DNA of 64,000 bases. Origin: an uncultured delta proteobacterium (lineage in GTDB: Bacteria; Desulfobacterota; Binatia; UBA9968). Below are positions 8,618 through 43,471 of the stretch, piece by piece. Each line of letters starts with the position of its first letter. The stretch's first letter is position 1. The stretch is from positions 93,057 to 157,056 of the forward strand of contig CAWDPO010000030.1 of the NCBI GenBank assembly GCA_963804165.1. The letters are read 5' to 3'. The position numbers and the translations under genes were made by a program. The notes under the pieces were generated by a model that was given only the letters and a program-made list of their open reading frames with translations, made no database searches and was not told the DNA's origin.

Positions 8618-10271
8618 CAGACTGTGTGAAAACTCCGTTTAGAACCATAGTGACAGAGAATATTGTTCATGAATGGATCGTTCGAATGTAGAATCATCCA
8701 ACGTTGAGATCAAGGGAGATGTTGGATGGGATACATTGAGGGAGAAGATCGTAAGCAGACGGTGTTGTTTCCAGAGGTGCTGGACGATTACATCAGTGAG
8801 GAAAATCCGGTTCGGTTCATCGATGTATTTATCGAAGGACTGGACCTTTCGGGGATGGGATTTCAAAAGGCGATCCCGAAGGATACGGGACGGCCGCCGT
8901 ATGATCCAGGAGATCTTTTACGGCTGTATGTGTACGGGTATCTGAATCGGACGCGCTCGAGTCGGCGGCTAGAAACCGAAGCCGGGCGCAACGTGGAGGT
9001 GATGTGGCTGATGCGCAAGCTTAGGCCGGACTTTAAGACGATCGCGGACTTTCGCAAGGATAATGCTCAAGGGATCAAGAAGGTATGTCGAGAGTTCACG
9101 CTGTGGTGTAAGCGGCTAGAGCTGTTTGGGAGCGAGTTGGTGGCCATCGACGGCAGCAAATTTGGAGCGGTTAATAGTCCCAAGCGCAACTTCACAGAAA
9201 AAAAGCTTAGGCGGATGATAAAAGAGATCGACGGTAAGATCGATCAGTATCTTAAGCAATTGGATCAACAGGATAAGCAGGAAGCCGGGCAACGGGGTGT
9301 GAGCCCAGAACAGCTCAAGGAGAAGATCGAACGATACAAAGAGCGCCGAGCGCAGTATGAGCAGTTAAAGACTGATCTGGAAGGCAGTGCAGAGAGTCAA
9401 ATATCATTGACAGATCCGCAGAGCCGCTCGATGCGTGTAGGGCACGGGGTGGAGGTCAGCTACAACGTGCAGATCGTGGTGGATCACAAGCACAAGTTGG
9501 TGGTGGAGCACGAGGTGACCAATGAAGTCACCGACCAAGGGCAACTGTCCACGATGGCAAAGAAGGCCCAAGAGACGCTCGGCGTACAGAGTCTAGAGGT
9601 AGTGGCCGACCGGGGTTACTACAACGGGGAAGAACTGAAAGTCTGCGAGCAGTCCGGGATGACGGTTTACGTCCCTAAGCCCAATAATTCATCGAACCTT
9701 AAGCGTGGACTGTTTACTAAAGAGGACTTTGTCTATGAGCCACAAAAGGACTGCTACAGGTGTCCTGCGGGAAAAGAGCTAAGCTACCGCTTTGACAGTG
9801 TGGAACAGGGTCGGGCGGTGCACTCCTACGAGATCTATGGCTGTAACAGCTGTGAGTTAAAGTCCAAGTGTAGCATCAACAAAAGGGGAAGGCGGCGGAT
9901 CACACGCTGGGTCGATGAAGCGATTTTGGAAGCGATGGCCCGGCGAATGACGGAGCATCCCGAGAAGGCAGAGTTACGCAAGTGTCTAGTGGAGCATCCT
10001 TTTGGCACCATCAAACGGGCCATGAACCAGGGTTACTTTCTGATGCGGGGATTAAGCAAGGTCGGAGCCGAGACGAGTCTGACAATACTGGCATACAACC
10101 TCAGGCGAGTGATGAATATTCTCGGAGTACGGAAAATGATGGAGGCCGTTACCTAAGAAGACGGGATCCTCAGCTGGGTAGTCGCGGTTTAGGGTGACAG
10201 GCGAATTCAATGAGCCGCTCAATCGTCGCCCATGCATACGCCGAAAGCTCAAAGAGTTTTCACACAGTCTG
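8618..10271 (+). mobile_element. IS1182-family insertion sequence
   Basis: Perfect 18-bp IRs CAGACTGTGTGAAAACTC / GAGTTTTCACACAGTCTG; 4-bp direct repeat ACGA at 8614-8617 and 10272-10275. Confidence 0.92.
8726..10156 (+). CDS. IS1182-family DDE transposase
   Basis: 'GRPPYDP', 'PDFKTIADFR', 'AIDGSK', 'ADRGY', 'VEHPFGTIK'. Confidence 0.95.
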   Translation: MGYIEGEDRKQTVLFPEVLDDYISEENPVRFIDVFIEGLDLSGMGFQKAIPKDTGRPPYDPGDLLRLYVYGYLNRTRSSRRLETEAGRNVEVMWLMRKLRPDFKTIADFRKDNAQGIKKVCREFTLWCKRLELFGSELVAIDGSKFGAVNSPKRNFTEKKLRRMIKEIDGKIDQYLKQLDQQDKQEAGQRGVSPEQLKEKIERYKERRAQYEQLKTDLEGSAESQISLTDPQSRSMRVGHGVEVSYNVQIVVDHKHKLVVEHEVTNEVTDQGQLSTMAKKAQETLGVQSLEVVADRGYYNGEELKVCEQSGMTVYVPKPNNSSNLKRGLFTKEDFVYEPQKDCYRCPAGKELSYRFDSVEQGRAVHSYEIYGCNSCELKSKCSINKRGRRRITRWVDEAILEAMARRMTEHPEKAELRKCLVEHPFGTIKRAMNQGYFLMRGLSKVGAETSLTILAYNLRRVMNILGVRKMMEAVT

Positions 10272-14578: not shown

Positions 14579-14982
14579 TACATTTTCTCCGGTTGATTCC
14601 GATAGCAACGTTCTGCCGGGACGGTTTTAGCAATTACCAGACATGTTCCGTTTTTTAATCTCCAGGTCAAATGCAGCGAACCCCAAATTTTTCGAGTGCC
14701 TGCCCGAGGGCGCGCAGTTGACGCGCATACTCTTCGAGACCTGATCTGAGTTCTCCACTGCGCAATCATCATTTTGACTAGCACGGTTCGCTCTCATTTT
14801 TCGCTCCGGATGCTGCACCGGGAATGGCCCTTCGCCGGTTACGGGCGGCGACTTATTTCATTAGCAAAGTCATGGCCGCTTTATGCTACGTTCCTCTGAC
14901 GTGCAGAATAGGCAATGTGAGCAAATTGCCCGTCCAGACTTGTGGCTGCTGGTGTTGTTATCACGATCAGCCAGTTCAGCGT

Positions 14983-15171
14983 TTAGGCGCTGCACGAAAA
15001 TGGTGCTGTCACGCACTCAAGTACTCTTGTCCAGCCTTGTGCCAAATTGGCTCCGACGTTCGTATTTCGCACTCCCATCCAAAAAACTAAAGCAACTAGA
15101 ACGACAACCAACGTATACTCAACAAGGCCCTGTCCGTCGTCTTCCCAGCAAAGTCTCTTCAAAATGTTCAT
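14983..15171 (-). CDS. flp: Flp/Fap pilin
   Basis: 'EDDG|QGLVEY' prepilin cleavage motif plus hydrophobic helix; AGGAGG RBS. Confidence 0.9.
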   Translation of the reverse strand: MNILKRLCWEDDGQGLVEYTLVVVLVALVFWMGVRNTNVGANLAQGWTRVLECVTAPFSCSA

Positions 15172-15225
15172 CTCACACCTCCTAACTAGGTTTTTGCGCG
15201 CCTATAAAAAATTCAGACGTTAGTC

Positions 15226-15262
15226 AAAAAAAAACCGGCTACAGAATCTCTGTTGCCGGTTT
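15226..15262 (-). terminator. Intrinsic terminator (riboswitch expression platform)
   Basis: ACCGGCAACAGAG-A-TTCTGTAGCCGGT followed by a long T tract; overlaps the aptamer 3' strand. Confidence 0.8.
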
Positions 15263-15322
15263 CACCACTCGCTCCCCGATCCCCTTGGTGACCACGTTGG
15301 GGTATCAGTTCATTGCGTCAAC
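15252..15322 (-). promoter_or_regulatory. c-di-GMP-II riboswitch aptamer
   Basis: GUUGACGCAAUGAA, stem CUGAUACCCC/GGGGAUCGG, loop UGGUCAC pairing with GUGAAACC, GGAGCGAGUGGUGAAACCGGCAAC; matches the class II layout as I know it. Confidence 0.8.
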
Positions 15323-15341
15323 GTCCTTACGGTGTCACAGC

Positions 15342-15357
15342 GCACGGATTGTGCCAA
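15342..15357 (-). promoter_or_regulatory. sigma54 promoter for riboswitch-flp
   Basis: TTGGCAC-AATCC-GTGC; predicted +1 lies just before the aptamer. Confidence 0.65.
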
Positions 15358-15795
15358 GGAGCGTGCTGCAACGCATTGGAGCGTTGACACCCATATGTTG
15401 ACAACTCAATCTACTTCCAATCGCATACGCGTGTCAGTTGACAAACACATTGGCGGTGATGTCGTGTCATAAATATTTAAAGTTCTGCGGCCGAACTCCA
15501 TTTCTTTCTTTGGAACGATGTAGCGATCAACATCCGCAGCGGTGATGGGCTCGCGAGCCGTCCTCGGTGACAGTGCTACCTGCGGCCGCGGGTTTCCTGG
15601 TAGGAATTTGTCCTCTGCTTCATTGCTTATCCAAATGTCACCGGACAAAACTTCGTAGGCTCGGTAATTTTAGCGCCTACTGCCGAATCTCATTCACACT
15701 AAACGCTCGTAATGTTGATGATTGAGCTATGGCATGGTTGCTGCGTTGGCCTCCGCTCACAAAGCCACACTGGTGGCAAAAACAAAGGAGAGATT

Positions 15796-16113
15796 ATGAA
15801 TATTTTGAAGCTACAACGGGTCGTGCCGGCACTCATGGTCACCTGCGCATTGGGGCTGACAGCATCGCCTGCTTTGGCCAAGAAGGAAGGCAAGACCAAA
15901 ATCAAGAGCAGCGAAAAGACCACGGAAAAGGAAAACTCTGGTCGTCAAGCTGGAGAGCTGCCTTCCGGTTTGCAGAAATACTCGGAGAAAAAAGGCCAGC
16001 TTCCATCCGGGTTGCAAAAAAAGAAGGATGAAGACGGCCTACTAACCAAAGGCCTCACGAGTGGTGGCAAAAAACTTGAGTCTACCGCCAAAAGCTCTAA
16101 ACCTTCCAAGTAA
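15796..16113 (+). CDS. Secreted Lys-rich protein with LPSGLQK repeats
   Basis: Signal peptide ending in ALA; two LPSGLQK motifs; sigma54-like TGGCAT-N5-CTGC at 15730. Confidence 0.7.
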   Translation: MNILKLQRVVPALMVTCALGLTASPALAKKEGKTKIKSSEKTTEKENSGRQAGELPSGLQKYSEKKGQLPSGLQKKKDEDGLLTKGLTSGGKKLESTAKSSKPSK

Positions 16114-16228
16114 TCCCCCCTATCGGGGCGGTGAGCAGTTATTTTCGGACAACTGCAATACCCGCCCCGCCCTTCTCACACGCGTGAGCGGTTGATTTAA
16201 AACCGCATTGAATGTATTTACTGCCGAC

Positions 16229-16561
16229 ATGAATTTACTTGACCTTACACCCGCGCAACTGAAACGTGCTGCCTATATCAAGGAACAAATCGACAAGCTT
16301 AATAAAGAGCTCGGTAGCATCCTCGGTGCGCCAGCTACATCGCGAGCGGCGCCAACGAGAAATCGGCCCATGAGCGCTTCTGTGAAAAAGAAGATTGCGG
16401 CAGCTCAAAGGACAAGATGGGCAAAACTTCGACGGTCGAAACCGGCTGTTTCAGCCCGACCTGCGGCCAAGAAGAAAGCATTCAGCACTGCCACCCGGGC
16501 GAAGTTGTCGGCTAAATTGAAAGCTTACTGGGCGGCGAAGAAGAGGTCGGGCAAGAAGTAG
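16229..16561 (+). CDS. Histone-like putative DNA-binding protein (copy 2)
   Basis: 8 aa differences in 110 versus 13933-14265. Confidence 0.7.
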   Translation: MNLLDLTPAQLKRAAYIKEQIDKLNKELGSILGAPATSRAAPTRNRPMSASVKKKIAAAQRTRWAKLRRSKPAVSARPAAKKKAFSTATRAKLSAKLKAYWAAKKRSGKK

Positions 16562-17050
16562 TCTATAGACTTGCTGTCTCCTCTCTCACGCATCAGCGTG
16601 CCAGCGGATAAAACGCATTAATCAAGAATAGTGGTGAAGCTTCAGGATGGGTCATGCCGCAAGGCTTGGCCCATTTTTTTTGCTCAAACAGTTCGGCGAT
16701 CCGATGGTCAAAAGTGGCTCTTGACGGGGCACGGTGTAAACGTCGCCGTGCCGACAAGTAGGCGGCAATCTCAACCAATGGGACTCTTCAAACCGATACA
16801 TAAGTATCATCCTTTTTTTCTCTACTTGAGTTTTTCTAACAAGTTCACCATCTTCAAGCATTGCCAACAATAGTATGTATATATCACCAGCCGAAAACGA
16901 AATTGATTATCAATCAAGTTGCCGGGGGAGATTGACAGCCCCAGCCCCTCGCCGATGATTCGTGCTAATTTTCGCAATGTACGTTTGATGCTTTATCCAG
17001 TGAAAGCTTGCGGCATAGCTGAGGACGGGCATGCCAAACCAAACCAAGCA

Positions 17051-17160
17051 ACACGAGGATTAAGGATTCTCAGCACGTGTAACCACGAGAAATCACAATT
17101 GAAGTTCTCTGGTTTGCCATCACTTTGCCATAAGAAAAAAACCCGTGAGTTCGAATCTAT
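17051..17160. repeat. att-like site A with arm repeats
   Basis: GAGGA-TTAAGGA-TTCTC (17055-17071); TTTGCCA at 17113 and 17124. Confidence 0.65.
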
Positions 17161-17291
17161 CCACCATTGGTAGATCGAATCAGCCAAATCAGACAGAATC
17201 CCGCCTTGTTGGGTTGTGGCGTCGACCAAATTACGTCCTTGTCCGAGGCAGTCGGGTTGACACGTATGAAGATAATGACAAGGTATTTCTC

Positions 17292-17737
17292 ATGTCCATC
17301 AAGAACATGCTTCTGCAGGGTGCGACACTTGTCTCGCTCTTACTCGGGGTCTCGGCATGTGCGAGTCAGAGGCCGGTGCTATCTTCCAATGAACACCTGA
17401 TGCGCATGGGTGCTGAGGTCGGGGAACGGGACATCGACGAGTGTATAGCACGCGCCGAAGCGACGTCGACCGAGAGTGGAAATGCTGCCAAAGGGAATGT
17501 GGTCGCCGGTGCAGCGACTAGCAGTGTTGTGGGCGCGGCGCAGGGGGTGCCGGTGGTGCGATTGTTGGACGGGCGGGTCAAGGTGCCGCAGCAGGCGCAG
17601 TAGGCGGAGTAGCGGGTAGCCTTACGCACGCACTATTGCAGGGATTGTTCCGATCTAAACCGCCGCAGCCATCCAATCAGCAATTCGTGGACAATTGCCT
17701 CCGCCAAAAAGGGTACGAGCCTGCTGGGTGGAAATAA
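17292..17737 (+). CDS. Glycine-zipper lipoprotein, one frameshift near 17545
   Basis: Lipobox 'VSAC', 'DIDEC', Gly zipper, C-terminal 'CLRQKGYEPAGWK'. Confidence 0.75.
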
Positions 17738-17844
17738 TTAATCATTGGTACACCCCTCCGCTCTGGTCACTTCTTAGCCACCAACAGCACGAACCAACAC
17801 AATTCAAAGGAAAAGTCTCTGGTCATGCGCTACACTCCAGAGCA

Positions 17845-18330
17845 TGGCAAGGCATCCCCGGCAAATCCGATCCATCAGGCAATCAGAATGCTTTCCGCTA
17901 CGGTCTGGGATCTCCCAGCGCCGCGTTAACGGCGCGCTCAATTCCCACTGAACAGTCAATCCGAGAAGAAGTCCTGGCAGGCTTGCTCGCCGATAAGGGC
18001 GGTGAGGCGCAGATCAGCACCACCATGCGCGTGCTGCCGAGATCATCGCGAGCGACGTGTCACTGCTGGTCACCGTCAACCAGGCGATCTAGGGCGTCAT
18101 CCAGAATAATCAGAAAGCGAAGACAAAATCCCAAGGCGCTAGCCCAATTGGACGGCTACAAAAGACCGCTGGTCGGCGCGTTGTCGGCGAATCTCCAGCG
18201 GTTCGGCATGGAAAAGGTCGCCAAATTGGAGTCGTTTCAAGAGATTATCGCCGAAGATGACCGAGGACGATGGGACCAGCGAAAATTCACACCAAACCAC
18301 TCCAATTACGAAGGCAGATGCAGACAATGA
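17845..18330 (+). pseudogene. Degenerate paralog of 22138-22638
   Basis: Shared 'GNQNAFR', 'EQSIREE', 'LDGYKRPLVG' segments with indels. Confidence 0.65.
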
Positions 18331-18441
18331 TGGGGGTGACCAGCTTTTACCCTCTTCATTCGATTATGGACAACTATATGAAATATCTAACAAGGCGAAC
18401 GGAGGGATAGACAAAAATTTTAGCTATGTCATTCTGATGGC

Positions 18442-18630
18442 ATGGCCAACAAAGCAAAGAAAAGAATTGCAAAGTCGAAAAGAACGGCTACCGACTGGGG
18501 GATAGGCCAGCCGTTAGCCTTCCCTAAGGCAAAAAACCTCACCGCCATTGATCGGCTGGCGCAAGAAGTCGTGGAAGAAGCCATGAGGGGCCCCTTCAAA
18601 CCCAAACGACCAAAGCTGAAGAAAAAGTAG
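18442..18630 (+). CDS. Small basic hypothetical protein
   Basis: 62-aa Lys/Arg-rich ORF. Confidence 0.4.
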   Translation: MANKAKKRIAKSKRTATDWGIGQPLAFPKAKNLTAIDRLAQEVVEEAMRGPFKPKRPKLKKK

Positions 18631-18905
18631 CTTCTAATCTCACCGGTGGTGGTGTGTCTTGCCATCCCGCCACGCCTGTAATGCAGGTGTGCCGCGGGCA
18701 ATCAATCCTCATCCCGGAACGACAGGTGCAGACCAGCGCTCCTCACAGAGTCTTTCAGGTAACTCACCTGAGATCCTATTTAGGCAAGCAAAACGTTGAA
18801 GGCCAGCAGTGAAACGGCGTAATTCTTAATGTGTCGGCGTGCAATCGCTCGACGGCAAACAACTGAGCGAGCTTTATACGAAGATGTTCCTACTAGTTAT
18901 ACGTC

Positions 18906-19256
18906 ATGAAACAGACATACAAAGGTTCGTGTCACTGCGGTAAAGTTCAGTTCGAAGTTGACGTTGATCTCGATCATGTCCGAGTTTGTGACTGCTCAAT
19001 ATGTCGTCGAAGAGGTGCCCTTATTCATCGTGTCGAAGAACAAGATTTTCGTCTGTTAACGCCGATCGAAGAGCTTTCTCTTTACCAGTGGCATACGAAG
19101 ACCGCCAAAGACTATTTCTGTCCTGACTGCGGTATCTTACCGTTCCGTCGTCCGCGTACAGCTCCAGAACTGTGGGATGTCAATGTTCGTTGTCTCGAAG
19201 GTGTCGAGCTATCGTCTATTCCCATCAGGTACGTTTATGGAAGCCGGTTGGACTGA
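18906..19256 (+). CDS. GFA/CENP-V family protein (gene cassette)
   Basis: 'GSCHCG', 'CDCSICRR', 'FCPDCG', 'VNVRCL'. Confidence 0.9.
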   Translation: MKQTYKGSCHCGKVQFEVDVDLDHVRVCDCSICRRRGALIHRVEEQDFRLLTPIEELSLYQWHTKTAKDYFCPDCGILPFRRPRTAPELWDVNVRCLEGVELSSIPIRYVYGSRLD

Positions 19257-19265
19257 GAGGGTGGC

Positions 19266-19346
19266 GTATAACATGCGCCTTGAGACAGATCTTCGGACCC
19301 GCTCGCAAAGATCGCGGGCCTCGGCTGCTCAGCCTCCGCGTCACAA
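19266..19346 (+). other. Integron attC-like site
   Basis: R'' GTATAAC is the exact complement of GTTATAC at 18896; CTTGAG/CTCAG L boxes; central stem; degenerate R' GTCACAA. Confidence 0.65.
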
Positions 19347-19364
19347 CGAGTTGGAGAATGAACC

Positions 19365-20297
19365 GTGGCGCCAAAACCAAAGAGGAGTGATCTCGAGCAA
19401 GCGACCGGGAAACCCGCTTCCCGGCTCATCGACCAGCGGATCCGCGATCTAGGGGGATGGCGCGGGGAGACCCTGGCCCGCATGCGGGCGCTGATCCTGG
19501 AAGCCGACCCCGAGATGACCGAGGAGTGGAAGTGGATGGGCACTCCGGTCTGGTCGCACCACGGGATCGTCTGCACCGGGGAGGCGTACACGAAGGTCGT
19601 GAAGCTCACGTTCGCCCGGGGGGCCAGGATCCCAGACCCATCGCGCCTCTTCAATTCCAGCTTGGAAGGCAACACGCGAAGGGCGATCGACATCCACGAA
19701 GGGGAGAAGGTCGACGCGGGCGCGTTCAAGGCGCTCGTGAAGGCCGCGGTGGCCCAGAATGGCCCGCCGGGTCCCGTGCACATGCCTGGCAAGGCGAAGC
19801 CGAAGGCCAGGAGCACGTCGCGTGCAACAAAGCCGGGAAAGGCGACCACCAAGGGCAAGGGACCGTCGAGGGTAGGCGCGAAGGCCAAGCCGTTGAAACT
19901 CCTTTCAGGCGGCAATCCGCAAATCGCGAAGGCCGACGGCGACGCCCCGGTGCAGGCGTACATCGCCGCGATGCCGGGCTGGAAGCGCGCCATTGGGAAG
20001 CGCCTCGACGCGCTCATCGTGCGCAACGTGCCCAACGTGCGCAAGGCCGTGAAGTGGAACTCGCCCTTGTACGGCATCGAAGGCCAGGGCTTGTTCCTGG
20101 GGTTCCACACCTTCACGCACTACGTCAAGGTGACCTTCTTCCGCGGCACGTCGCTGCGACCCGTTCCACCCGGAGGCACGGGCAAGGACGCGCGCTGGAT
20201 CGACATCCACGAGGACGATCTCGACGAGGCGCAGATGGCGACCTGGGTGAAGCAGGCGGCCGCGTTGCCCGGCTGGGTTCCTGGCCGACCGTCCTGA
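19365..20297 (+). CDS. Tandem DUF1801 (YdhG-like) protein
   Basis: Two domains with 'EEWKWMGTPVW' and 'KAVKWNSPLY'; markedly GC-rich. Confidence 0.85.
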   Translation: MAPKPKRSDLEQATGKPASRLIDQRIRDLGGWRGETLARMRALILEADPEMTEEWKWMGTPVWSHHGIVCTGEAYTKVVKLTFARGARIPDPSRLFNSSLEGNTRRAIDIHEGEKVDAGAFKALVKAAVAQNGPPGPVHMPGKAKPKARSTSRATKPGKATTKGKGPSRVGAKAKPLKLLSGGNPQIAKADGDAPVQAYIAAMPGWKRAIGKRLDALIVRNVPNVRKAVKWNSPLYGIEGQGLFLGFHTFTHYVKVTFFRGTSLRPVPPGGTGKDARWIDIHEDDLDEAQMATWVKQAAALPGWVPGRPS

Positions 20298-20414
20298 GGC
20301 AACGCCCGGAGCAGACCCGCCTCACCTGTTGGAGCAAGAACGAATTTGATTCTCAATCAAGTGCCCACCTGCGGGCACAGTGCCGATCATTCGGAGTGCA
20401 AAACGTGATCGCGT

Positions 20415-20921
20415 TTATTCGTAGATTCGATTTGTTAAAACATGCACGTACGAAATTTTATTTTCAGCCGTAGGAAAAATATTGATCTCGTAAATGCCCG
20501 GCAGATTCCGCCATCTGGTGACGGCCTGATTAGATAAATCACCTGTCGCATTCTTATCCAAGCCAAGATCTCCCAGTAGCGTCCATCCGTCCTTGGGGTA
20601 GGAATAGTCCAGATATTTTCCGCTCAATTTTTGCACCCATATCGTCAGATACCTTGCTCCACCTTCCAAATACGTGACCTCAATGGCCCCGTTCGTATAG
20701 GCTGCTCTTATCGCGGGATAGGTGGTGCCTCGGGTACCTCTAAAAATGTCGTCTACGAGTTTGGATGGTTGACCTAAAATCTTTTCCACATCTGGACGAG
20801 GCCTATCAGCCACCTGTTTCAAATCGAGGAGAAGTTTTTCCTGCGCAGCGGAATGGCCAATCACAAAAAACACGGGCAACAATCCTATAATGACGATTTC
20901 CTTCAACCCTATAAAATTCAT
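20415..20921 (-). CDS. Secreted hypothetical protein
   Basis: 168 aa, signal peptide, GGAGG RBS. Confidence 0.6.
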   Translation of the reverse strand: MNFIGLKEIVIIGLLPVFFVIGHSAAQEKLLLDLKQVADRPRPDVEKILGQPSKLVDDIFRGTRGTTYPAIRAAYTNGAIEVTYLEGGARYLTIWVQKLSGKYLDYSYPKDGWTLLGDLGLDKNATGDLSNQAVTRWRNLPGIYEINIFPTAENKISYVHVLTNRIYE

Positions 20922-21032
20922 CTCTTGTCACCTCCGATAACGCGAGAGACCTCCTTTATTTGACGAACGGGAAGCGGCACGACATTCATGACGTCGATAA
21001 CCAGATCGACACGTTACAGATTGAAAGCAGAT

Positions 21033-21150
21033 GATACGAGGATTCAGGATTCTCGTAGCATCTCTAAGCACAAGAGAACACAAGAGAATTTTTTAACTTT
21101 GCTACTACTTTGCCAGTAAAATAATCGGCATCAATTCGAATCCATCCAAG
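21033..21150. repeat. att-like site B with arm repeats
   Basis: GAGGA-TTCAGGA-TTCTC (21038-21054); TTTGCTA at 21098 and TTTGCCA at 21109. Confidence 0.65.
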
Positions 21151-21284
21151 ACTGAGAGAACGAAAGGGGCCTTATTCGAGCAGAAACTCTGAGGGAGTCG
21201 CAGGATCGAATTCAACGACGCCTCAGGCAAATCTTACAGGATTTGTTAGGGGGGAAGAATACAATTCAAACAATTCAATTACAG

Positions 21285-21385
21285 GGTCAACGTCAGAGCT
21301 AACCGGCGCACGCCATTTTTGCACGCGTGTAATGTTGATACGTCAGACAATGGCGTGCCCGGTTTCCACAAGCCAGACGTTAAGC
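21285..21385 (-). other. attC-like site
   Basis: GCTTAAC...GTTGACC with stem AACCGG-GCACGCCATT / AATGGCGTGC-G-CCGGTT. Confidence 0.55.
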
Positions 21386-21504
21386 CTTTGATCCATCAAC
21401 CTACTGAACGAATAAAATTTGTGCGGTGATTCGTAGGACGATAGAAGCGTAGATTACAACTGCTTCTCTCCGGTGTCCCGAATCATCTCGTCTTCGTTTT
21501 TTGG

Positions 21505-21804
21505 CTACTCTCTGGCGTTGCGCGTCGCCACCCATACAGAGAGCGCACCCATGCCGAGGCCGATCGCCAAGCCCAAGGCCACTGAGCGTAGCGGATCGCG
21601 CTTGACGCGATGGGCCGCATCTTCCATCAAGTCTTCAGCGGCATAACGGCTGTGCTTGGCCAACCGCTTGGCCTCAGTCACAGCATCTTCGACGGCGTGA
21701 GAAGCTGCAGCTTTCAAGCGCGCGGCTTCGCCTCCCACTTCCGCCAGCCGATCTCTAACGTGCATGCCTTTCTCGAGCAGACTGTGTTTCTCGTTCACTT
21801 CCAT
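21505..21804 (-). CDS. DUF883/ElaB/YqjD-like protein
   Basis: Amphipathic body plus 'VKRDPLRSVALGLAIGLGMG' tail; AGGAGG RBS. Confidence 0.8.
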   Translation of the reverse strand: MEVNEKHSLLEKGMHVRDRLAEVGGEAARLKAAASHAVEDAVTEAKRLAKHSRYAAEDLMEDAAHRVKRDPLRSVALGLAIGLGMGALSVWVATRNARE

Positions 21805-22137
21805 AATCGATTCCTCCTTTTTTCTAGAGGTTAAAGGTTGAGGAAGGTTTACTAACTGCTGGTTTTCTTCTTCCCGGCTGCACCTGACAGTCGACGGATC
21901 GGAAAATAGAGTCCGGGTCTTTGTTGCGCTGTGGGTTTTTACACTTCACATACCCAACCGCAATAGCGAAAGCGTTGAGTGGGCTTTTTAGCTAAGTTCT
22001 TTTTTCTTTGTGTAGACATGAGTTGAGTTTAACAAACGGGCTGTGTCACCGCTAGACGCTTTACTCAATACTGAGAGAGCCGAATAACTCCGCCAATTCA
22101 GAGGAAAAATCCCGTTCTCTCCGCTATCCAATGCCTC

Positions 22138-22638
22138 ATGGCAGGGTTACGCGGCAAATCAGGCCCACCGGGCAATCAGAACGCCTTCCGCCACGGTCTG
22201 GCTGGGATCTCGCAGCGACGGATCAACGGCGCACTGAACCCCGCCGAACAGTCCATTCGAGAAGAAATCCTAGACGGTCTAATCACTGATAAGGGCGGTG
22301 AGCCCCAGATAAGCACTGGCCTGCCCGTGCTGGCCGAGATCATCGCGAGCGATGTGTCTCTGCTGGTCACCTTCAACCAGGCCATTGAGGGCGTCATCCA
22401 GAGGGCGAATCCCAAGGCGCTGGCTCAATTGGACGGCTACAAAAGACCGCTCGTGGGATCTCTATCGGCGAATCTCCAGCGGTTCGGTATGGACAAGGTC
22501 GCCAAATTGGAATCTCTTCAGGAAATCATTGCCGAGATGACCGAGGACGATGGGAACGGCGAGAATTCAAACACAGACGGGCCCATTACGACGGCCGTTG
22601 GTTCGTCATTCGGTATAAGCAATTCTGTGAGAAATTGA
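22138..22638 (+). CDS. Hypothetical protein with terminase-small-subunit-like N-terminus
   Basis: 'GKSGPPGNQNAFRHG' motif. Confidence 0.55.
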   Translation: MAGLRGKSGPPGNQNAFRHGLAGISQRRINGALNPAEQSIREEILDGLITDKGGEPQISTGLPVLAEIIASDVSLLVTFNQAIEGVIQRANPKALAQLDGYKRPLVGSLSANLQRFGMDKVAKLESLQEIIAEMTEDDGNGENSNTDGPITTAVGSSFGISNSVRN

Positions 22639-22682
22639 GCGCTACGGGGTGAGTGGGTCATCTCTGATGGATTTTATCTGGT

Positions 22683-22952
22683 ATGAACGTTTATAATAGG
22701 GCTGAAAGCATGGCAAACCAAATAAAAGGTTCGTGTTCATACCGTGGCCACGCGATAGATTTTGCGACCGAGGAACACGACGGTCTCTGGGAAACCGCGG
22801 GTAGGTTTCAATCGCGTAAGGGAAGCTTGGGCATCACGGTCTACAACGATGGGATAAAAGGTTTTAGTTCCAAAGAACAGGCCGAAGATGCCACCATCAG
22901 TTGGGTGAAACAATGGATCGATGAAAATCTCCCAGAGTCCCCACGACCCTGA
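22683..22952 (+). CDS. Hypothetical protein
   Basis: Protein-like ORF ending 'A..W.KQWID'. Confidence 0.5.
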   Translation: MNVYNRAESMANQIKGSCSYRGHAIDFATEEHDGLWETAGRFQSRKGSLGITVYNDGIKGFSSKEQAEDATISWVKQWIDENLPESPRP

Positions 22953-22984
22953 AATGCCGCCGTATTACACGCAATCACCAATAA

Positions 22985-23191
22985 TCACCGCCGCTGCCTA
23001 ACGGCTTTGCTATCGGCCGCATGCTTCGCTGGTCTTTTTAGCAGGACAGTATCGCTTTGCGCCACGTACGCCACGGCTTCCCATTCCTCGCGACCGAGAT
23101 CGTTCAAAATCTGCTCATGCTTTTTCCGCTGGTGCGGTTCTGTGGCATCAACAAGCAATCCGAGCGCAACTATTTTGTATTCCCATTGCAT
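22985..23191 (-). CDS. DUF4177 protein
   Basis: 'MQWEYKIV', 'LNDLGREEWE', 'LKRP'. Confidence 0.8.
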   Translation of the reverse strand: MQWEYKIVALGLLVDATEPHQRKKHEQILNDLGREEWEAVAYVAQSDTVLLKRPAKHAADSKAVRQRR

Positions 23192-23523
23192 ATAACCGCC
23201 TATTTCTCGGGCGTGCGCAGCTACGGCTCAATCTGCCAATCTATAGGTGCTGGTTCTTTCCATCCCACCACACCTGTAACGCCGGCGTATTGCAAGCTAT
23301 CCTCCCTCTCGATCACCGGTGCTGCCGGATCGTGTTTCACTGACTACCGGAAAAAGCTCTCGCTGATTCCAAGCTGAGCAGCCGCACTCCTGAGTAGTGC
23401 AAATCATAGTCAGCGTATGCTGCTGCCATTCCAATAATCTTGTCTGATCCGGCTGAAATATACAGTGACAGATTGTTCCTGAGCGGGGGAGTCGTGGGCC
23501 GTTGGAAACCAGAAGGGAAAAAT

Positions 23524-23570
23524 GTGGCCAGGGACGGAGTCGAACCGCCGACACGAGGATTTTCAGTCCT
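23524..23570 (-). repeat. Exact 47-bp duplication of the tRNA-Phe 3' part (att site C)
   Basis: GTGGCCAGGG...TTTTCAGTCCT is identical to 38992-39038. Confidence 0.95.
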
Positions 23571-30269: not shown

Positions 30270-30345
30270 CCGAGAACTGAACGCACATTCAGCGAAGGTT
30301 TGCTCGATTGGCGTTGCAGTCGACCGTAATATCGCGGAGTTGATT

Positions 30346-30372
30346 GATACGAGGATTGCCAATTCTTGTGTC
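30346..30372. repeat. att-like core D
   Basis: GATACGAGGA-TTGCCAA-TTCTTGTGTC. Confidence 0.55.
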
Positions 30373-30483
30373 GTCAACCGCGAAAAAAATCTTTCCATAC
30401 CGGCGAATATTTCCGAGAACAAAAGACTGTGAGAGCCAATCGGAAGGACTGGAAGCCGGATCGTCGGAACCGGAAATCTTTAT

Positions 30484-30648
30484 CGCCCAGTTCCGACGCC
30501 CGGCCCAGGGACAATCACCCGTTCCTTTTGAAACCCGCCACGCCGGGAGAACGGCTCTTTGCCCCGAAATGTCTGTAGCACCGGCAGCGTCCACAACCCG
30601 TAGGGTTTGGCGGGTGGGATCACTATGCGTTCAATTTGGTGATGTCAA
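30484..30648 (-). ncRNA. Candidate structured ncRNA with promoter (copy 1)
   Basis: Near-identical to 33237-33417; nested stems; TTGACA-N17-TAGTGA. Confidence 0.45.
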
Positions 30649-30793
30649 TTCGTCACAAAATGAAGAAATGTTCTTGTGTTGACAGACTTACATGAAGTGA
30701 TATTGGTCGCTGCATAGACGGTCTCCCTCCAGCAGTGGTACAGCTCTTCCTCGAAGTGAATTGAACAGAAGTTCCAGCCGCGAGGAGAAAACG

Positions 30794-31675
30794 ATGAAAA
30801 CTCTGCGACGTTTAGTAATCGTACTTTCGTGTCTTACAGTAGCGTTCACGACTAGCTTCGCACAGGAAAAGTTTTTCGATTCCAATGGGGTGCGCATTCG
30901 ATATGTCGAACAGGGCAATGGAGATGCAATCCTCTTGATTCACAATTTCGGGAATAGCCTCGACCGCTGGATTGCTTTGGGCGTACTGCCGAATCTCGCT
31001 CGGGATTACAGAGTTATTGCCTTTGACGTGCGCGGCCATGGAAAGAGCGGGAAACCGCAAGACGCGAATGGCTATGGAAAGGAGATAAGTCTAGATGCTG
31101 TTCGTCTGTTGGATCACCTCGGGATCCAAAAGGTGCACATGATCGGATACTCGATGGGGGCCCGCCTTACAGCGCAACTTTTGACAACTCACTCCGAGCG
31201 CTTTATCACCGCTACGCTCGGAGGCCACGCAGGCGTATTTCGCTGGACCCGCGAAGATACTGAACGCATTGAGCAGGAGGCATCTGAGATAGAACGCGAG
31301 TGTGTGAGCCGGACTCAGCTTTACCGTAATGCTCCCAAGCTGGACGAGGAGGAGATAAAAAAGCGGTCAACGGCCTGTATGGCCGACCCCAACAAAGACC
31401 GATTCGCACTGGCGGGAGTTAGACGCTCCCGTAAGAATTGGGTCATCACGCCCGCACAGGTTGCAGCCGTGAAAGTACCGACCCTCGCGGTTGTTGGAAG
31501 TCTCGATGGATCGCTCAAGGATTTTTACGATCTGAAGAAACTACGGCCGGATGTGAAGCTGGTTATCTTAGATGGTGCCACGCATGTTGGAGATCGTGGG
31601 GTGGAACGTCGGCCCGAATTCGTCGGGGCCATTCGGGAGTTCATTGCCTCCAATCGAGCGGCGTTGTCGCGGTGA
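30794..31675 (+). CDS. Secreted alpha/beta hydrolase
   Basis: Signal peptide, 'DVRGHGKS', 'GYSMG'. Confidence 0.9.
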   Translation: MKTLRRLVIVLSCLTVAFTTSFAQEKFFDSNGVRIRYVEQGNGDAILLIHNFGNSLDRWIALGVLPNLARDYRVIAFDVRGHGKSGKPQDANGYGKEISLDAVRLLDHLGIQKVHMIGYSMGARLTAQLLTTHSERFITATLGGHAGVFRWTREDTERIEQEASEIERECVSRTQLYRNAPKLDEEEIKKRSTACMADPNKDRFALAGVRRSRKNWVITPAQVAAVKVPTLAVVGSLDGSLKDFYDLKKLRPDVKLVILDGATHVGDRGVERRPEFVGAIREFIASNRAALSR

Positions 31676-31679
31676 ATGA

Positions 31680-32372
31680 ATGAAGCAGATAGTTGCTATG
31701 GGTGGCGCGGGGTTTCTGATGGAGGATACTCCGCTGCTCGATGATTTCATCCTGTCGCGCGCCAAGGGGAAGGAGTCCAGACTCTGCTTCCTTGCGACTG
31801 CCAGCGGCGACAGTGATCGAATGTTGGTCAACTTCTACACAGCACTTGGTGCTCGTTGCAGCGCGAGTCACCTTGCCCTTTTCCGCCGGACGCATGCGGA
31901 CATCGCAGGTTATCTTCTCAAGCAGGATATCGTGTATGTCGGCGGCGGTAATACCGCCAACATGCTGGCAGTCTGGCGAACTCACGGTGTTGACAAGGCG
32001 CTAGCGCGTGCCTACGAGCACGGTGTCGTCCTGTGTGGCGTCAGTGCAGGAGCGCTCTGTTGGTTCGACTGTGGCGTTACTGATTCATTTGGACATCTTG
32101 CGCCGCTGCACGGACTCTTGGGATTGCTGCCTGGGAGTTTCTGCCCGCACTACAATGGAGACGCGGGAAGACGTCCGACCTATCACCGCCTCATACGGGA
32201 AGGAATGAAGGCAGGCTTCGCGGCTGATGTGGGTGCTGCCCTGTACTTTGCGAATGGAACGCTGGCTGAGGTCGTGACTTCAGCTCCCAATGCTGCCGCG
32301 TACAGGGTCGAATGTCGCGAAGACATAACACATGAAGAGCAGTTGGCAACGCGATATCTCGGAAACCGCTGA
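31680..32372 (+). CDS. Peptidase E (S51) family
   Basis: 'ATASGD', 'VGGGNT', 'GVSAGA', 'CPHY'. Confidence 0.9.
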   Translation: MKQIVAMGGAGFLMEDTPLLDDFILSRAKGKESRLCFLATASGDSDRMLVNFYTALGARCSASHLALFRRTHADIAGYLLKQDIVYVGGGNTANMLAVWRTHGVDKALARAYEHGVVLCGVSAGALCWFDCGVTDSFGHLAPLHGLLGLLPGSFCPHYNGDAGRRPTYHRLIREGMKAGFAADVGAALYFANGTLAEVVTSAPNAAAYRVECREDITHEEQLATRYLGNR

Positions 32373-32431
32373 AAACGCCTACGGCTTTTTCGATTTCTGG
32401 CACGGCCTCCGAGATCGGCAGCGATGAAAAT

Positions 32432-32469
32432 GGTTCGAACTGTCGACAGGAGGATTGCCAATTCTCGTG
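32432..32469. repeat. att-like core E with decayed tRNA T-arm
   Basis: GGTTCGAACTGTCGACAG-GAGGA-TTGCCAA-TTCTCGT. Confidence 0.6.
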
Positions 32470-32507
32470 CCGCAGCGATTGATTTGTAGCAAGTCGACGA
32501 GCACCCC

Positions 32508-33219
32508 GTGATTACGGTCGCCGGTAAACCACGTCCGCCAATTCCTGTCTGCGCTTTTTGTGGCAAGTCACAGCTAAGACTAGAGACCACATTCCACCTA
32601 AAGGAATCTTCCCGAGGCCGAGGCCACAGTTGATCACTGTTCCGGCTTGCTGCACGGTGTAACAGAGGCACATCGAAAATCGAAGAAGCTTTCAGAGTGT
32701 ATCTGTCACTCCGTGTCGGCATCAACAATGATGCAACGGCGAAGCTTTGGAACGATGAAGCAATGCGGACACTTAGGCACAATCCCCGGCTCCGTAATAG
32801 AATCCTGCGATCCACGCGAACTATCAGCGCGCGGAGCCCAGCCGGGCTTATCTTGGCCGAAAGACAGGGCGGAGCATGGCCACCTGAACTTCACGATCCC
32901 ATTGTCGAAAAAACAATTCGCGGACTCTATTTTTATCACTACGGCGAGATCCTAGGCGACAGAGTGCAAATCAAGGTTCAATGGTTACGGACGACGGAAG
33001 ATGTGGAAAATTGGTCAAGGCACGTCGATCCATCCGTGGAGCAATTGTGGACGGAAACTTCCGGGCGTCGGCAATGTCGGCACAGGATATTTCCGATATC
33101 GCTATGCCACGGCTCTTGAAAATCCATTACACTCTGCGTGGTTGTTCGACTTCTACGGGGCACATTTCGCCAGCGGGTATACATCACCAATCGACATGCT
33201 GAAATCTGACAGCAATTGA
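32508..33219 (+). CDS. HNH endonuclease-like protein, frameshifted
   Basis: Joined frames give 'CAFCG..TRDHIPPKGIFP..LITVPAC..CN'. Confidence 0.7.
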
Positions 33220-33236
33220 AAGCCAGTGCGTCAGAA

Positions 33237-33417
33237 CGCCCAGTTCCGACGCCCGGCCCAGGGACAATCACCCGTTCTTTTTGCAACCCGCCACGCCGGG
33301 AGAACGGCTCTTTGCCCGAAATGTCTGTAGCACCGGCAGCGGTCCACAACCCCAGCACCATGGGTGCTGCTGAGTTTGGTGGGTGGGACCACTATTCGTT
33401 CAATTTAATGATGTCAA
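33237..33417 (-). ncRNA. Candidate structured ncRNA with promoter (copy 2)
   Basis: Homolog of 30484-30648 with a longer first hairpin; TTGACA-N17-TAGTGG. Confidence 0.45.
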
Positions 33418-33833
33418 CTTCGCGGCAAGAACGAACACTCAGTAGGACACGTCGACGCGCAGCAAAACCAACGAGAAAGATCTCCCTCTGTGCACCACCC
33501 CGGCGATCCTCGGAACTTGATTTCGAGTCTGCCAGCTTAAGCTCTGAACCACCATTCACCGGCAACAACCAACAGAAAATCAGCGCCTCTCTCCCCTCTT
33601 CTTTGTCCGTAATTGTTCCTGTTTGTCGATACAACAAGCACAAAATACGCACAGCGTATCGGCAATCAGCTTGTAGGCGGCCTTTGCCGATATTAATATC
33701 GAAAAAAGACAGATCCGTAATACTCGCTAGTTGGGCAGACGAAAAGGACGCGCATGCCGGATACCAGTGGAGGCAATCAGGAAGGACCGACCTTATGCGC
33801 GTTCCTCCGGGACTCGGCCAAAAGGAGGAAACG

Positions 33834-34220
33834 ATGAATCAACAGTACTTCTATCGACTTGAGGATGCCCTTCATGGTCTCTCGACTGACCCAGCGACTG
33901 CCGCGGACCCAATCAAGCGAACATTCTTGTTTGACGGACAGCACGTCTCGTGCAACGTGAACATTCTCGAAAAGAGCGAAGATGTCATCCACATTCAGCC
34001 AAACCACGATGAGATCGTGCTAGTACTAGAAGGAAAGTGCGGTTTCAGGGTCGGTGATGAGACCAGGCGCGTTGCGACGGGGGATTTGATGTTCATCCCG
34101 CGTAATACGGTGCATGGGCCAATTATCGACAGTGGGCGGGTTGCACTGCTGTCGCTTTTTGCACCATTCTTCGATCGCACGAAGAAGAACATCCAGTGGT
34201 CGCGCGATGCGTTTGCATAG
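33834..34220 (+). CDS. Cupin domain protein
   Basis: 'HIQPNHDE..VLEG', 'IPRNTVHG'; AGGAGG RBS. Confidence 0.85.
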   Translation: MNQQYFYRLEDALHGLSTDPATAADPIKRTFLFDGQHVSCNVNILEKSEDVIHIQPNHDEIVLVLEGKCGFRVGDETRRVATGDLMFIPRNTVHGPIIDSGRVALLSLFAPFFDRTKKNIQWSRDAFA

Positions 34221-38989: not shown

Positions 38990-39065
<76 letters not shown>

Positions 39066-41602: not shown

Positions 41603-42472
41603 TCAATTCTTTCGCCGCAACAGCAAGGTTACCCATTCCTGTCTTCGACGGCGCTCGATAACCCGGAAATTTTTAGCGAGACGACGCACGACGCCAGGGA
41701 CTTTCTGAGACAAGATTCCTGACAAAACCAAGTACCCTGCCGGCGACACGCGTTTCTCCAACGCGCCGGCAAGTTCGACGATCGTCTCCGCAGTGAGATT
41801 GGCGACCACCACAGTAAAAGTTCGTCTGAGCGTGCCTATTTTCTTATCGCTCAATCGAATTCTTTCAGCCACCCGGTTGACGCGTAGATTTTCTCCAGCA
41901 ACCTTCACGGCTACCGGATCGTTATCAATGGCCCAAACTTCCGTCGCGCCCAACAGCGCCAAGGCGATGGACAATATGCCAGAGCCTGTGCCGACGTCGA
42001 GCGCCGTGAACTTCTTTCCGCCAAGCCCATCGGCGACGACTTCGAGGAATTCCATACAACCGCGCGTCGTCGCGTGGGTGCCGGTGCCGAATGCCATACC
42101 GGGGTCGATGACAATCACGCGACGGCGGCGAAACTTGGGCGGCTCAAGCCACGGCGGCGTAATCCAAAACGTTTTGCCGACGCGACGCGGCTTGATAAAC
42201 CGTTGCCAGGATTGTTCCCAGTTTTCTGATTTGATGAATTTCCATTGTAGGCGCGGATTGCCGGCGCGCGGGTTGAGCCGGGTGACTCTGACTACAGAGC
42301 GTGTGACTTCTCGCCGCAACGCCGCGTTATCGCGTGAAGACGGAAAAAAAGCATCCAGTCCGTTGCGTTTTAAAACGACGCCCGGCGAACCGCGCTCGAT
42401 GACGGCGTCGGAAAGCGCGTCTATATTTGCCACGCCGGTGCGAATCGACAGTTGCAACCAGGATTGCGCCAC
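41603..42472 (-). CDS. prmA: Ribosomal protein L11 methyltransferase
   Basis: 'DPGMAFGTGTH.TT', 'DVGTGSGILS'. Confidence 0.95.
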   Translation of the reverse strand: MAQSWLQLSIRTGVANIDALSDAVIERGSPGVVLKRNGLDAFFPSSRDNAALRREVTRSVVRVTRLNPRAGNPRLQWKFIKSENWEQSWQRFIKPRRVGKTFWITPPWLEPPKFRRRRVIVIDPGMAFGTGTHATTRGCMEFLEVVADGLGGKKFTALDVGTGSGILSIALALLGATEVWAIDNDPVAVKVAGENLRVNRVAERIRLSDKKIGTLRRTFTVVVANLTAETIVELAGALEKRVSPAGYLVLSGILSQKVPGVVRRLAKNFRVIERRRRQEWVTLLLRRKN

Positions 42473-42598
42473 GTGTTTTTATGCCACAGCGTCGAAATCG
42501 GTTCAATTGATGATGGACGTCGCGCCATTCGTCATGACCGTCTTGTCAAAATCGCCACTTCCAGATATTGAATTGAACTTGATCGAAAGGAGCGAAAG

Positions 42599-43471
42599 AT
42601 GAAATTCGCCGCGACCAAACCCAACGATCTCGCGATTGTAAGGAACGAGAAATTGATTCCCGTCGGTGAGTTATTGCCCAAAGGATCGACAATGATCGAT
42701 TTGATCGCCGCCTACGACGGCCTCAAGGGCCAATTGGAAAAGCTAGCGATCCAAGGCGTTGGCATGACGCTCGACCACAAGCTACTCAAACCGCCGGTGG
42801 AGACCCCGTCAAAGATTTGGGCCGCCGCCGGCAACTACAAGCGCGGCACCGCGGGCTTGGATGACGCCCGCGGTCGAGGCACGGCCGCCAAGACCTCGCC
42901 GGAAGAATTGCTTGAAAACATTTTTCTGAAACCGCCTTCGGCCATCGCCGGTCCCGAGGATAATATTTTAATTCCGAAAAACGCCGATTCGATTTTTCCC
43001 GAGCTGGAGCTCTGCGTCGTCATCGGCAAAAAAGCTCGACACATCGCCAAAGCCCAAGCCTTCGACGCTGTTTTCGGCTACACGATCATGCTCGACGTCA
43101 CGGCCCGCGGTTATGGCTTGAGCAAAAATCTTTCCGGCACCCGCAACGTGCGCAAGGGCTTCGAAACCTTCGCGCCGATCGGCCCGTGGATCACGACAAA
43201 GGATGAAATCGCCGATCCGCACAATCTTTGGATGAAACTTTGGATCAACGGCGAGCTCAAGCAATCCGCGAAGACCGACGCGATGATCAACGACATCGCG
43301 ACACAGATCAGTTTTTTGTCTCAAGTCACGACTCTACTCCCGGGCGACTTGATTACCACAGGAAATCCGGATTCCCCTGAATTCCAGGAAAAGCTCAAGC
43401 CCGGCGACGTTTTAAAAGCCGAGATCGAAGGCATCGGTGCGATGACTAACGGCGTCGCGAGAGAGCAATAG
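42599..43471 (+). CDS. Fumarylacetoacetate hydrolase family
   Basis: 'FLKP', 'ELEL', 'DVTAR', 'K.FETFAP.GPW', 'PGDLI.TG'. Confidence 0.92.
   Translation: MKFAATKPNDLAIVRNEKLIPVGELLPKGSTMIDLIAAYDGLKGQLEKLAIQGVGMTLDHKLLKPPVETPSKIWAAAGNYKRGTAGLDDARGRGTAAKTSPEELLENIFLKPPSAIAGPEDNILIPKNADSIFPELELCVVIGKKARHIAKAQAFDAVFGYTIMLDVTARGYGLSKNLSGTRNVRKGFETFAPIGPWITTKDEIADPHNLWMKLWINGELKQSAKTDAMINDIATQISFLSQVTTLLPGDLITTGNPDSPEFQEKLKPGDVLKAEIEGIGAMTNGVAREQ

Follow-up and report, generated by a model that had tools for sequence, protein, structure and literature searches.

A conserved non-coding element with promoter-like boxes and hairpins in small integrase-less cassettes of an uncultured delta proteobacterium

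A 64,000-nucleotide (nt) stretch of DNA from an uncultured delta proteobacterium of the UBA9968 lineage, called the window below, was analyzed, and two copies of a structured repeat, named EL1 and EL2, were followed up. Both lie in an island bounded by a tRNA-Phe gene, and several described systems resemble this arrangement. Cis-mobilisable elements and the tandem accretion of genomic islands were reportedly treated by Pavlovic in 2004 and by Bellanger in 2011. Tandem accretion systems likewise contain integrase-less modules that are flanked by attachment sites and stacked at one tRNA-linked site. In contrast, the modules found here are ~2-4 kb in size, their cores appear to be palindromised mimics of an anticodon arm with varied 7-nt spacers, and many of them carry a structured repeat. 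In lambda, sib is an RNase III site that acts on the int-sense transcript. It is likewise structured and located just beyond the attachment site as seen from the integrase, and its linkage to the int transcript depends on the integration state; however, the structure and the promoter-like boxes of the element studied here favour the other strand.

An excerpt of PMC5812530 describes the promoter Pcirc of ICEclc, which is located at the end of an element integrated in a tRNA gene, faces outward to the attachment site and drives the integrase in sense after circularisation, so that the transcribed target depends on the integrated or circular state. The promoter predicted here would, in the arrays, meet an integrase end-on or run antisense into cargo; the element differs further by ~150 nt of conserved structure, by its multicopy state and by its persistence in integrase-less cassettes. 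The same excerpt mentions the RteR small RNA and the tetQ leader of CTnDOT, likewise small RNA or leader structures encoded by a mobile element, which control excision and transfer genes; they have no sequence or structural relation to the element, whose role here is putative. Like the element, integron attC sites and the DUF1874 motif (excerpt of PMC5737381) are structured repeats that recur between consecutive small cargo genes of the same orientation; the element may share with them a hairpin with a variable tip and bulges, and the ambiguity between RNA and single-stranded DNA (ssDNA) applies to all of them. Unlike at attC, recombination at the present locus maps to a separate 28-bp core outside the structured repeat, and the recombinase would be a lambda-type tRNA-Phe integrase with arm sites.

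Copies, extent and distribution of the element

The element is a real, uncatalogued, non-coding module of small integrase-less cassettes of this soil bacterium, composed of promoter-like boxes and conserved hairpins. Its copies were located in the window as follows.

30452..30651, minus strand: EL1, with promoter-like boxes, hairpin 1, rod domain and 3' hairpin (hidden Markov model (HMM) match 30453-30650, E 3.5e-60)
33219..33420, minus strand: EL2, with the same parts as EL1 (HMM match 33220-33420, E 3e-61)

The self-alignment of EL1 and EL2 consisted of three blocks separated by small indels, namely D3 (30484-30564 / 33237-33317, 98% identity), the 27-nt D6 (100% identity) and D4 (30605-30648 / 33374-33417, 89% identity). 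Hairpin 1 was longer and the 3'-hairpin loop shorter in EL2 than in EL1. Two repeat copies with unrelated flanks, as reported in an initial annotation of this DNA, were thereby borne out. The positions given there were right, but the length of ~165-180 bp fell short: the alignment with further copies and the HMM gave units of ~200 nt, extended by ~40-50 nt at the 3' end (RNA orientation). This conserved unit was found in many differing gene contexts.

The element had been described as belonging to no recognised RNA family and as holding no convincing open reading frame (ORF), and both statements held. The cmscan search against Rfam that had been proposed was run, and Rfam 15 gave no match on either copy (whole window at the gathering score; 30300-33600 at E up to 10). 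Open frames cross the copies at 30344-30682, 33216-34220 and 32978-33361. Three internal segments of the element vary in length between copies, multiples of three not being preferred, and one of them splits 18/14/10 over the remainder classes. Because the internal lengths show no three-base periodicity, the frames crossing the copies are not genes, and a protein-coding element was ruled out on either strand. No description of the element was found by keyword searches of the literature, which could not probe the sequence itself.

The genome assembly (7.5 Mb, 46 contigs, 81% complete) contained four copies of the element, one of them 3'-truncated. A match was obtained in 8 of 61 related genomes, this one counted. 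Six of 30 congeners carried the element, the unpublished genome G005 among them, and up to 11 partly decayed copies, clustered and co-oriented, were present in one genome. In 400 further genomes drawn from across the phylum, with only two candidates scored per genome, there was no match. A scan of genome contigs for 20-mers returned 28 loci, seven of which were extended to real copies by blast, all in three congener assemblies; the remaining 21 (8 with 20-31-nt matches alone and 13 with none) were attributed to chance. At least 122 element loci were detected in soil metagenomes by a pattern scan in which one stem was required to be invariant; 80 of these loci were fetched, yielding 65 distinct sequences with both full flanks. 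The same pattern had no match in IMG/VR, and a phage association was rejected on this basis. Short internal fragments of the element were also seen to recur right after duplicated F420H2-dependent quinone reductase genes in a further genome (L037, G018:C13:1940000-1956000).

The tRNA-Phe island and its cassettes

Both copies lie in a 15.4-kb island between tRNA-Phe and a partial repeat of this gene. The features that define the island and the cassettes are listed below.

38993..39065, minus strand: tRNA-Phe (GAA) gene, the attachment site at one island end
23525..23570, minus strand: 46-bp exact copy of tRNA-Phe positions 28-73, the other island end
30346..30373: core 1, with TTGCCAA as the spacer between imperfect inverted arms, ~80 nt downstream as EL1 is read
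32445..32472: core 2, with the same TTGCCAA spacer, a direct repeat of core 1 (2099 bp start-to-start)
30761..32372, plus strand: cargo of the 2.1-kb cassette (alpha/beta hydrolase 30761-31675; peptidase S51 31680-32372)
32502..33219, plus strand: broken HNH-like gene, with pieces in three reading frames as compared with the intact homologue of 261 amino acids (aa) of locus L093, antisense to the EL2 direction

At the metagenome locus L093, the left flank of core 1 and the right flank of core 2 meet at one TTGCCAA core, an HNH-like gene and then the element follow the joined core as in the window, and the 2,099-bp segment between the cores, comprising EL1 and the two hydrolase genes, is absent. 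Because L093 shows the flanks joined at one core, the 2,099-bp segment is a discrete insertion/deletion unit cut at the cores. The earlier assignment of the element to a mobile module was supported, and this empty site supported that of the TTGCCAA sites to recombination cores; the geometry, with the copies pointing at these cores, was also correct for both. Another locus, L132, looks like a recombinant of EL2-type and EL1-type flanks. In the window and at 25 of 80 metagenome loci, a core follows the element, as the element is read, by no more than 1.4 kb; in 18 of those 25 loci the distance is 23-162 nt. Where a gene intervenes between element and core, it is antisense to the element.

Cores 1 and 2 are identical over 16 nt, at 30350 and 32449. 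Better-preserved cores read CGACACGAGGA-N7-TCCTCGTGTCG, and the right arm of the core corresponds to the variable loop of tRNA-Phe together with the 3' strand of its anticodon stem. On this sequence match, the TTGCCAA cores are taken to be integrase-type sites mimicking the tRNA-Phe anticodon stem. Tandem CTTTGCCA-N3-CTTTGCCA repeats are located beside cores (~40 nt after the further cores) and after the tRNA, and in relatives they differ between integrase variants, like arm-type integrase sites. On the opposite strand, the CTTTGCCA-like repeats resemble what we take to be the sigma-54 -24/-12 pair. Further cores were observed at 17055, 21038 and 36239 with the spacers TTAAGGA, TTCAGGA and TTCTGGA, and arm-type repeats at 17112, 21097, 36297, 38082, 38916 and 23687.

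The island of the window contains no integrase. A tyrosine integrase of 426 aa was found next to the element at the metagenome locus L088; within the order, 24 of 123 genomes, including two unpublished ones, encode homologues of it. Among the eight genome loci with the closest homologues, tRNA-Phe was found at six; it lies there on the strand opposite to the integrase match, ~90-170 nt beyond it. The core arms thus resemble the anticodon arm of the tRNA-Phe targeted by the co-occurring integrase family. Because of the 46-bp tRNA repeat, the matching cores, the arm repeats and the integrase beside tRNA-Phe in 6/8 loci, the context of the element was assigned to a lambda-type attachment-site array at a tRNA gene.

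A classical integron was ruled out, as no IntI was found near the element and the crossover lies in the TTGCCAA core. The TIGR02249 model scored above its cut-off in one of five genomes searched, that of the congener G018. A true integron integrase is encoded there on contig C6 at 42134-43036 (L191; 445 bits against a cut-off of 265), and neither an element nor a real core was found within ~17-20 kb on either side of it. No IntI above the cut-off was found in the 81% complete genome of the window.

The genes that adjoin the element were varied. The HNH-like gene ends 18 nt before EL2; the earlier statement that the second copy reads antisense across an HNH gene is right in orientation, but the gene is broken and its label comes from weak matches alone (HNH_5 E 0.018, PHROG E 5e-3, PADLOC PDC-M01B E 6e-5). 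A convergent neighbour gene of ~165 aa, antisense to the element, was represented by 17 ORFs in one blastp cluster and stops, at 8 loci or more, 15-34 nt away from the 3' hairpin. Its family gave only a weak small-terminase match (E 6.5e-4) and no match in Pfam, NCBIfam or PADLOC. A DUF2971 label considered for the gene after the C46 copy was dropped, as Pfam gave no match. A second conserved non-coding block was observed at 33513-33724 and at 13 of 80 metagenome loci, 100-300 nt past the -35 side of the element and in the opposite direction. It holds GCCTCTCTCCCCTC, a GGCAC..GCA motif and the palindrome GCCGATATTAATATCG (~33686-33701), and looks like a divergent regulatory region for cargo genes.

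Additionally, the island cargo includes GAF/histidine-kinase genes, a TIR-domain gene and a PhdYefM antitoxin gene. A run of small plus-strand genes at 14883-23377, mostly without Pfam matches (one GFA) and interspersed with cores, looks like a continuation of the cassette array past the tRNA remnant. A c-di-GMP-II-GAG riboswitch aptamer was detected at 15245-15329 on the minus strand (48.2 bits, Rfam gathering score 40). Elsewhere in the window, a DDE transposase is located at 8726-10153 and an IS91-type Y2 transposase, split into two frames, at 62373-63465, adjoined by tyrosine-recombinase fragments with a stop (~63488-63999).

Promoter-like boxes, conservation and fold

Conservation was expressed as the share of the majority letter in an alignment of 42 copies (A3). 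The parts of the element, in its reading direction, were as follows.

30643..30648 in EL1 and 33412-33417 in EL2, minus strand: -35-like TTGACA (TTGAC in 42/42 aligned copies, TTGACA in 34/42)
30620..30625 in EL1 (TAGTGA) and 33389-33394 in EL2 (TAGTGG), minus strand: -10-like box (TAGTGG in 34/42 copies)
30595..30608, minus strand: hairpin 1 of EL1 (AAACCC-UAC-GGGUU), stem conserved, tip length varying between copies
30566..30580, minus strand: near-invariant 15-nt unpaired bulge UGCUACAGACAUUUC in the fold of EL1 (share 0.97 over the first 13 columns)
30495..30592, minus strand: rod domain of EL1, closing pairing GGACGC..CCGG / CCGG.GCGUC
30455..30504, minus strand: 3' hairpin of EL1 (GCCGG-GCGUCGGAAC ... 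GUUCCGACG-N-CCGGC), added to the stems listed in the initial annotation

The spacer between the boxes was 17 nt long in 40 of 42 copies, the remaining two having 16 nt, and a spacer of fixed length and variable sequence flanked by two conserved boxes has the look of a promoter. TTGACA-N17-TAGTG(A/G), which had been read on the minus strand, was present in both copies, and its -10 box is weak, as had been noted: TAGTGG lacks the usual final T. The shares were 0.93 for the -35 block, 0.64 for the promoter spacer, 0.97 for the -10 block CGAATAGTGGTCCCA, 0.58 for the hairpin-1 tip, 0.99 for GGACCGCUGCCGG, 0.97 on average for the unpaired stretch UGCUACAGACAUU(UC) over its first 13 columns and 0.70 for the 3'-hairpin loop. 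Such patchy conservation of the sequence fits a function.

The 5' part of the element is homologous to the start region of an integrase gene. In a related island without the element (G110), the excisionase-integrase spacer aligns with the first ~65 nt of the element; this spacer holds the -35 and -10-like boxes of the integrase, its ribosome-binding site and its start codon. The same ~65 nt also align with a second copy directly before the integrase at L088, where an HTH_17 excisionase-like gene (36.8 bits), the element and a Phage_integrase gene follow each other on one strand. The element and the upstream region of the integrase have TTGAC, AACGAATA(A)G and CC..CCAAA in common. Upstream of the integrase, CAGGAGG plus ATG is found, and the element reads CAGCAGG at that place; in subfamily B the loop of hairpin 1 still reads GGAGG-N4-5-ATG/TTG, and the downstream frames differ. 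Because the 5' part aligns with the excisionase-integrase spacer, the promoter-like boxes are considered paralogues of an integrase promoter and start region. Miniature inverted-repeat transposable elements and insertion-sequence ends were rejected, as the 3' end holds no inverted counterpart of the 5' TTGACA side. The flank similarity at L088, examined as a target-site duplication, is a diverged 27-28-nt promoter duplicate and not a fresh duplication.

Hairpin 1 differs in length in all four genomic copies with the pairing kept, and most of 41 distinct versions folded singly (without a tally) yielded the same stem with a variable tip, in line with the earlier description of a first hairpin that varies in length and stays paired. 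In the comparison with attC sites, hairpin 1 had a variable tip and a bulged base, and the RYYYAAC/GTTRRRY pair of the attC consensus was not seen at its base. The inner stems of the rod are GGGGCAA/UUGUCCC, CCGUUCU/GGAACGG and CCCG/CGGG. The nested stems and the 15-nt bulge reported initially agreed with the minimum-free-energy fold of EL1, but in EL2 the outermost pairing was replaced by an alternative. In the family, the 3' hairpin has the form GCCGG-GCGUCGGAAC ... GUUYCGACGC-N-CCGGC. This hairpin and the closing stem of the rod are mutually exclusive because both use the same GCGUC/CCGG bases, and a third pairing, GGUCC/GGACC, competes with the 5' strand of the closing stem. The element differs from a riboswitch or cis-leader in that no conserved class of genes lies downstream of it on the same strand; the genes are varied and often convergent, and only at L088 is an integrase downstream. 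The mutually exclusive pairings of the element are not accompanied by a terminator U-tract.

In A3, 92-93% of the cells paired against 37-52% with slid partners, a comparison that is biased because the structure was derived from the same sequences. Two subfamilies differ by pair-preserving changes (CAGC/GCUG vs CAGG/CCUG, and G-U vs A-U), and inner stems alternate between 27 G-U and 15 A-U and between 28 U-G and 11 U-A. Cells with G-U/U-G exceeded those with A-C/C-A by 114:19 in structure S2 and by 71:17 in S1 (both without the inner stem of hairpin 1), and pairs showing any G-U-type as compared with any A-C-type cell numbered 23:12 over all of S2. Because G-U cells outnumber A-C cells, folding of the minus strand, as RNA or ssDNA, is favoured. 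Overall, the structure was only moderately supported.

Possible functions of the element

We tentatively propose, with somewhat less than even confidence, that the element is a non-coding promoter together with a structured RNA or leader, originating in tRNA-Phe-specific integrative elements of one family and kept in their small, integrase-less cassettes. RNA polymerase would start a few bases after TAGTGG on the minus strand, and the resulting ~190-nt transcript would fold into hairpin 1, the rod with the invariant bulge and the long 3' hairpin. The relic of the ribosome-binding site would be paired in hairpin 1. Since the same bases are used by the 3' hairpin and by the closing stem of the rod, the transcript could either terminate or gain stability at this point, or it could continue over the arm sites and the core. 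A continued transcript would enter the integrase as a leader, as at L088, or could instead be antisense to cargo genes, of which the HNH-like gene is an example. The likely role would be to control the expression of the recombination module or of the cassette.

Several results weigh against this proposal. A strict sigma-70 promoter scan, whose consensus is the E. coli rule, did not call the boxes. The promoter-like part failed its filter in 23 of the 70 metagenome copies having enough flank, and fragments truncated at the 5' or 3' end are common in genomes; many copies are therefore decaying. The fold energy of single sequences was no better than that of shuffles (z = +0.30 for EL1, -0.89 for EL2). 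The covariation check suggested in the initial annotation yielded no convincing covariation: the score was barely above the controls and was reached by 18/500 and 29/500 shuffles, pairs changing on both sides numbered only 3 and 6, the RNAalifold consensus had two-sided change in only 1 of 29 pairs, and the CCGG/CCGG stem shows uncompensated breaks. The neighbouring genes were so varied that no conserved regulated gene is apparent. None of 30 integrase loci of relatives (L203 and L216 from unpublished genomes) had an element at a distance of up to 1.5 kb, and a 10.4-kb island that is intact and contains a related integrase has arm repeats and no element at its far end; the link to the integrase is therefore drawn from one locus and from sequence homology. 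Four soil RNA libraries, from as many studies, yielded contigs with relatives of the element only, at a depth of 2-5 and without strand or ends. One of these contigs spans the -35 box, so that DNA carry-over is possible, and the contigs give at most a weak hint and are no evidence of transcription.

Alternatively, the element may be a cis-acting DNA site of the cassettes, such as an extended attachment-site arm or a recombination enhancer bound by integrase, excisionase or host bending proteins, or an ssDNA structure for transfer or replication; the hairpins would then represent inverted protein-binding half-sites or ssDNA folding rather than RNA. Sequence analysis by itself does not separate ssDNA from RNA motifs, according to the excerpt of Weinberg et al. 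2017 (PMC5737381). The element adjoins the core and the tandem CTTTGCCA-N3-CTTTGCCA arm-type repeats, its most conserved block has GGCAAAG, a 7/8 match to the reverse of the arm repeat (a chance of ~0.15, estimated by inspection), copies without the promoter part persist, and integrase-less cassettes, in which the element is kept, would need cis sites for movement in trans. On the other hand, the element is placed ~100-330 bp from the core centre and beyond the arm repeats, the crossover maps to the core, and the intact related island has arm repeats without the element. The excess of G-U over A-C would not be expected for double-stranded protein sites, although ssDNA folding on this strand would produce it; moreover, the variable spacer of fixed length between conserved boxes looks like a promoter, and no relaxase or replication gene was present among the annotated genes of the window. 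A DNA site is a possible but doubtful explanation. A relic, in which a duplicated integrase promoter and start was fused to unrelated sequence, multiplied by cassette duplication and homologous recombination and is now functionless, was judged unlikely. It would agree with the homology of the 5' part, where a relic of the ribosome-binding site and ATG remains with the downstream frame not kept, with the many mutated fragments truncated at either end, with the narrow taxonomic range (6/30 in the genus; 0/400 across the phylum, two candidates per genome scored), with the weak covariation and with the apparent recombinant L132. Neutral decay would not, however, leave conservation as uneven as 0.97-0.99 in some blocks beside 0.58-0.70 in loops and spacer. 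The spacer length is constant in 40/42 copies, the pairing of hairpin 1 was kept despite changes in length and sequence, and the changes between subfamilies (G-U to A-U; CAGC/GCUG to CAGG/CCUG) preserve pairs.

A function on the plus strand appears improbable. The element would serve there as the 3' structure of co-oriented cargo genes, as a terminator, a stabiliser or an RNase III-type retroregulator that, like lambda sib, integrase-strand transcripts would reach only when ends are joined. Most neighbour genes are on the opposite strand to the element (by reading of the listing, uncounted), the ~165-aa gene and the HNH-like gene stop 15-34 nt from the 3' hairpin (at least 8 loci) and 18 nt short of EL2, respectively, and, seen from where an integrase would be expected, the element is on the other side of the core. 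However, the common G-U pairs would turn into A-C mismatches on that strand, the -35/-10-like boxes and the relic of the ribosome-binding site are read on the minus strand, and at L088 the integrase follows downstream of the element on the same strand. A further proposal was an integron-like cassette system built on a lambda-type integrase in place of IntI, whose small integrase-less cassettes would each combine the structured RNA with a core of palindromised tRNA-Phe anticodon arms and a private 7-nt spacer, and in which the RNA would act in recombination, for instance by pairing with or marking the core, with movement in trans; it is very improbable. The guide RNA considered initially was not borne out, as no segment of the element robustly tracks the core spacer and the conserved bulge has no complement in the genome except the element's own opposite strand. 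For hairpin 1 against the core spacer, 169 of 2000 shuffles were as good, and for the bulge and the other unpaired segments no trans target was found above the reversed-sequence control. The whole element shared longer words with its own core spacer than with those of shuffled partners (5/1000 shuffles as good); this signal was driven by a few loci, its matches included the promoter spacer and non-element sequence, and it was lost with hairpin 1 alone. At L101, two substitutions in hairpin 1 recreate six of the seven bases of the locus's own core spacer. An IS110 bridge RNA or recombinase guide RNA was rejected on the results for hairpin 1 and the bulge, and no DEDD recombinase was seen among the neighbours.

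If the element were a DNA site or a relic, its interest would be modest. If the proposed promoter and structured RNA are real, the RNA would be an uncatalogued and abundant non-coding RNA of soil bacteria that is tied to site-specific recombination cassettes and not to housekeeping. The context alone is of interest: it is a tRNA-Phe-anchored array of very small integrase-less modules, with apparent anticodon-arm mimics of varied spacer as their boundaries, and direct evidence supports the gain and loss of one 2.1-kb module of the array. The array therefore offers a tractable system for the study of how lambda-type integrases move non-autonomous cassettes, and it also bears on whether a leader or RNA carried by the element sets the direction or the timing of cassette movement.

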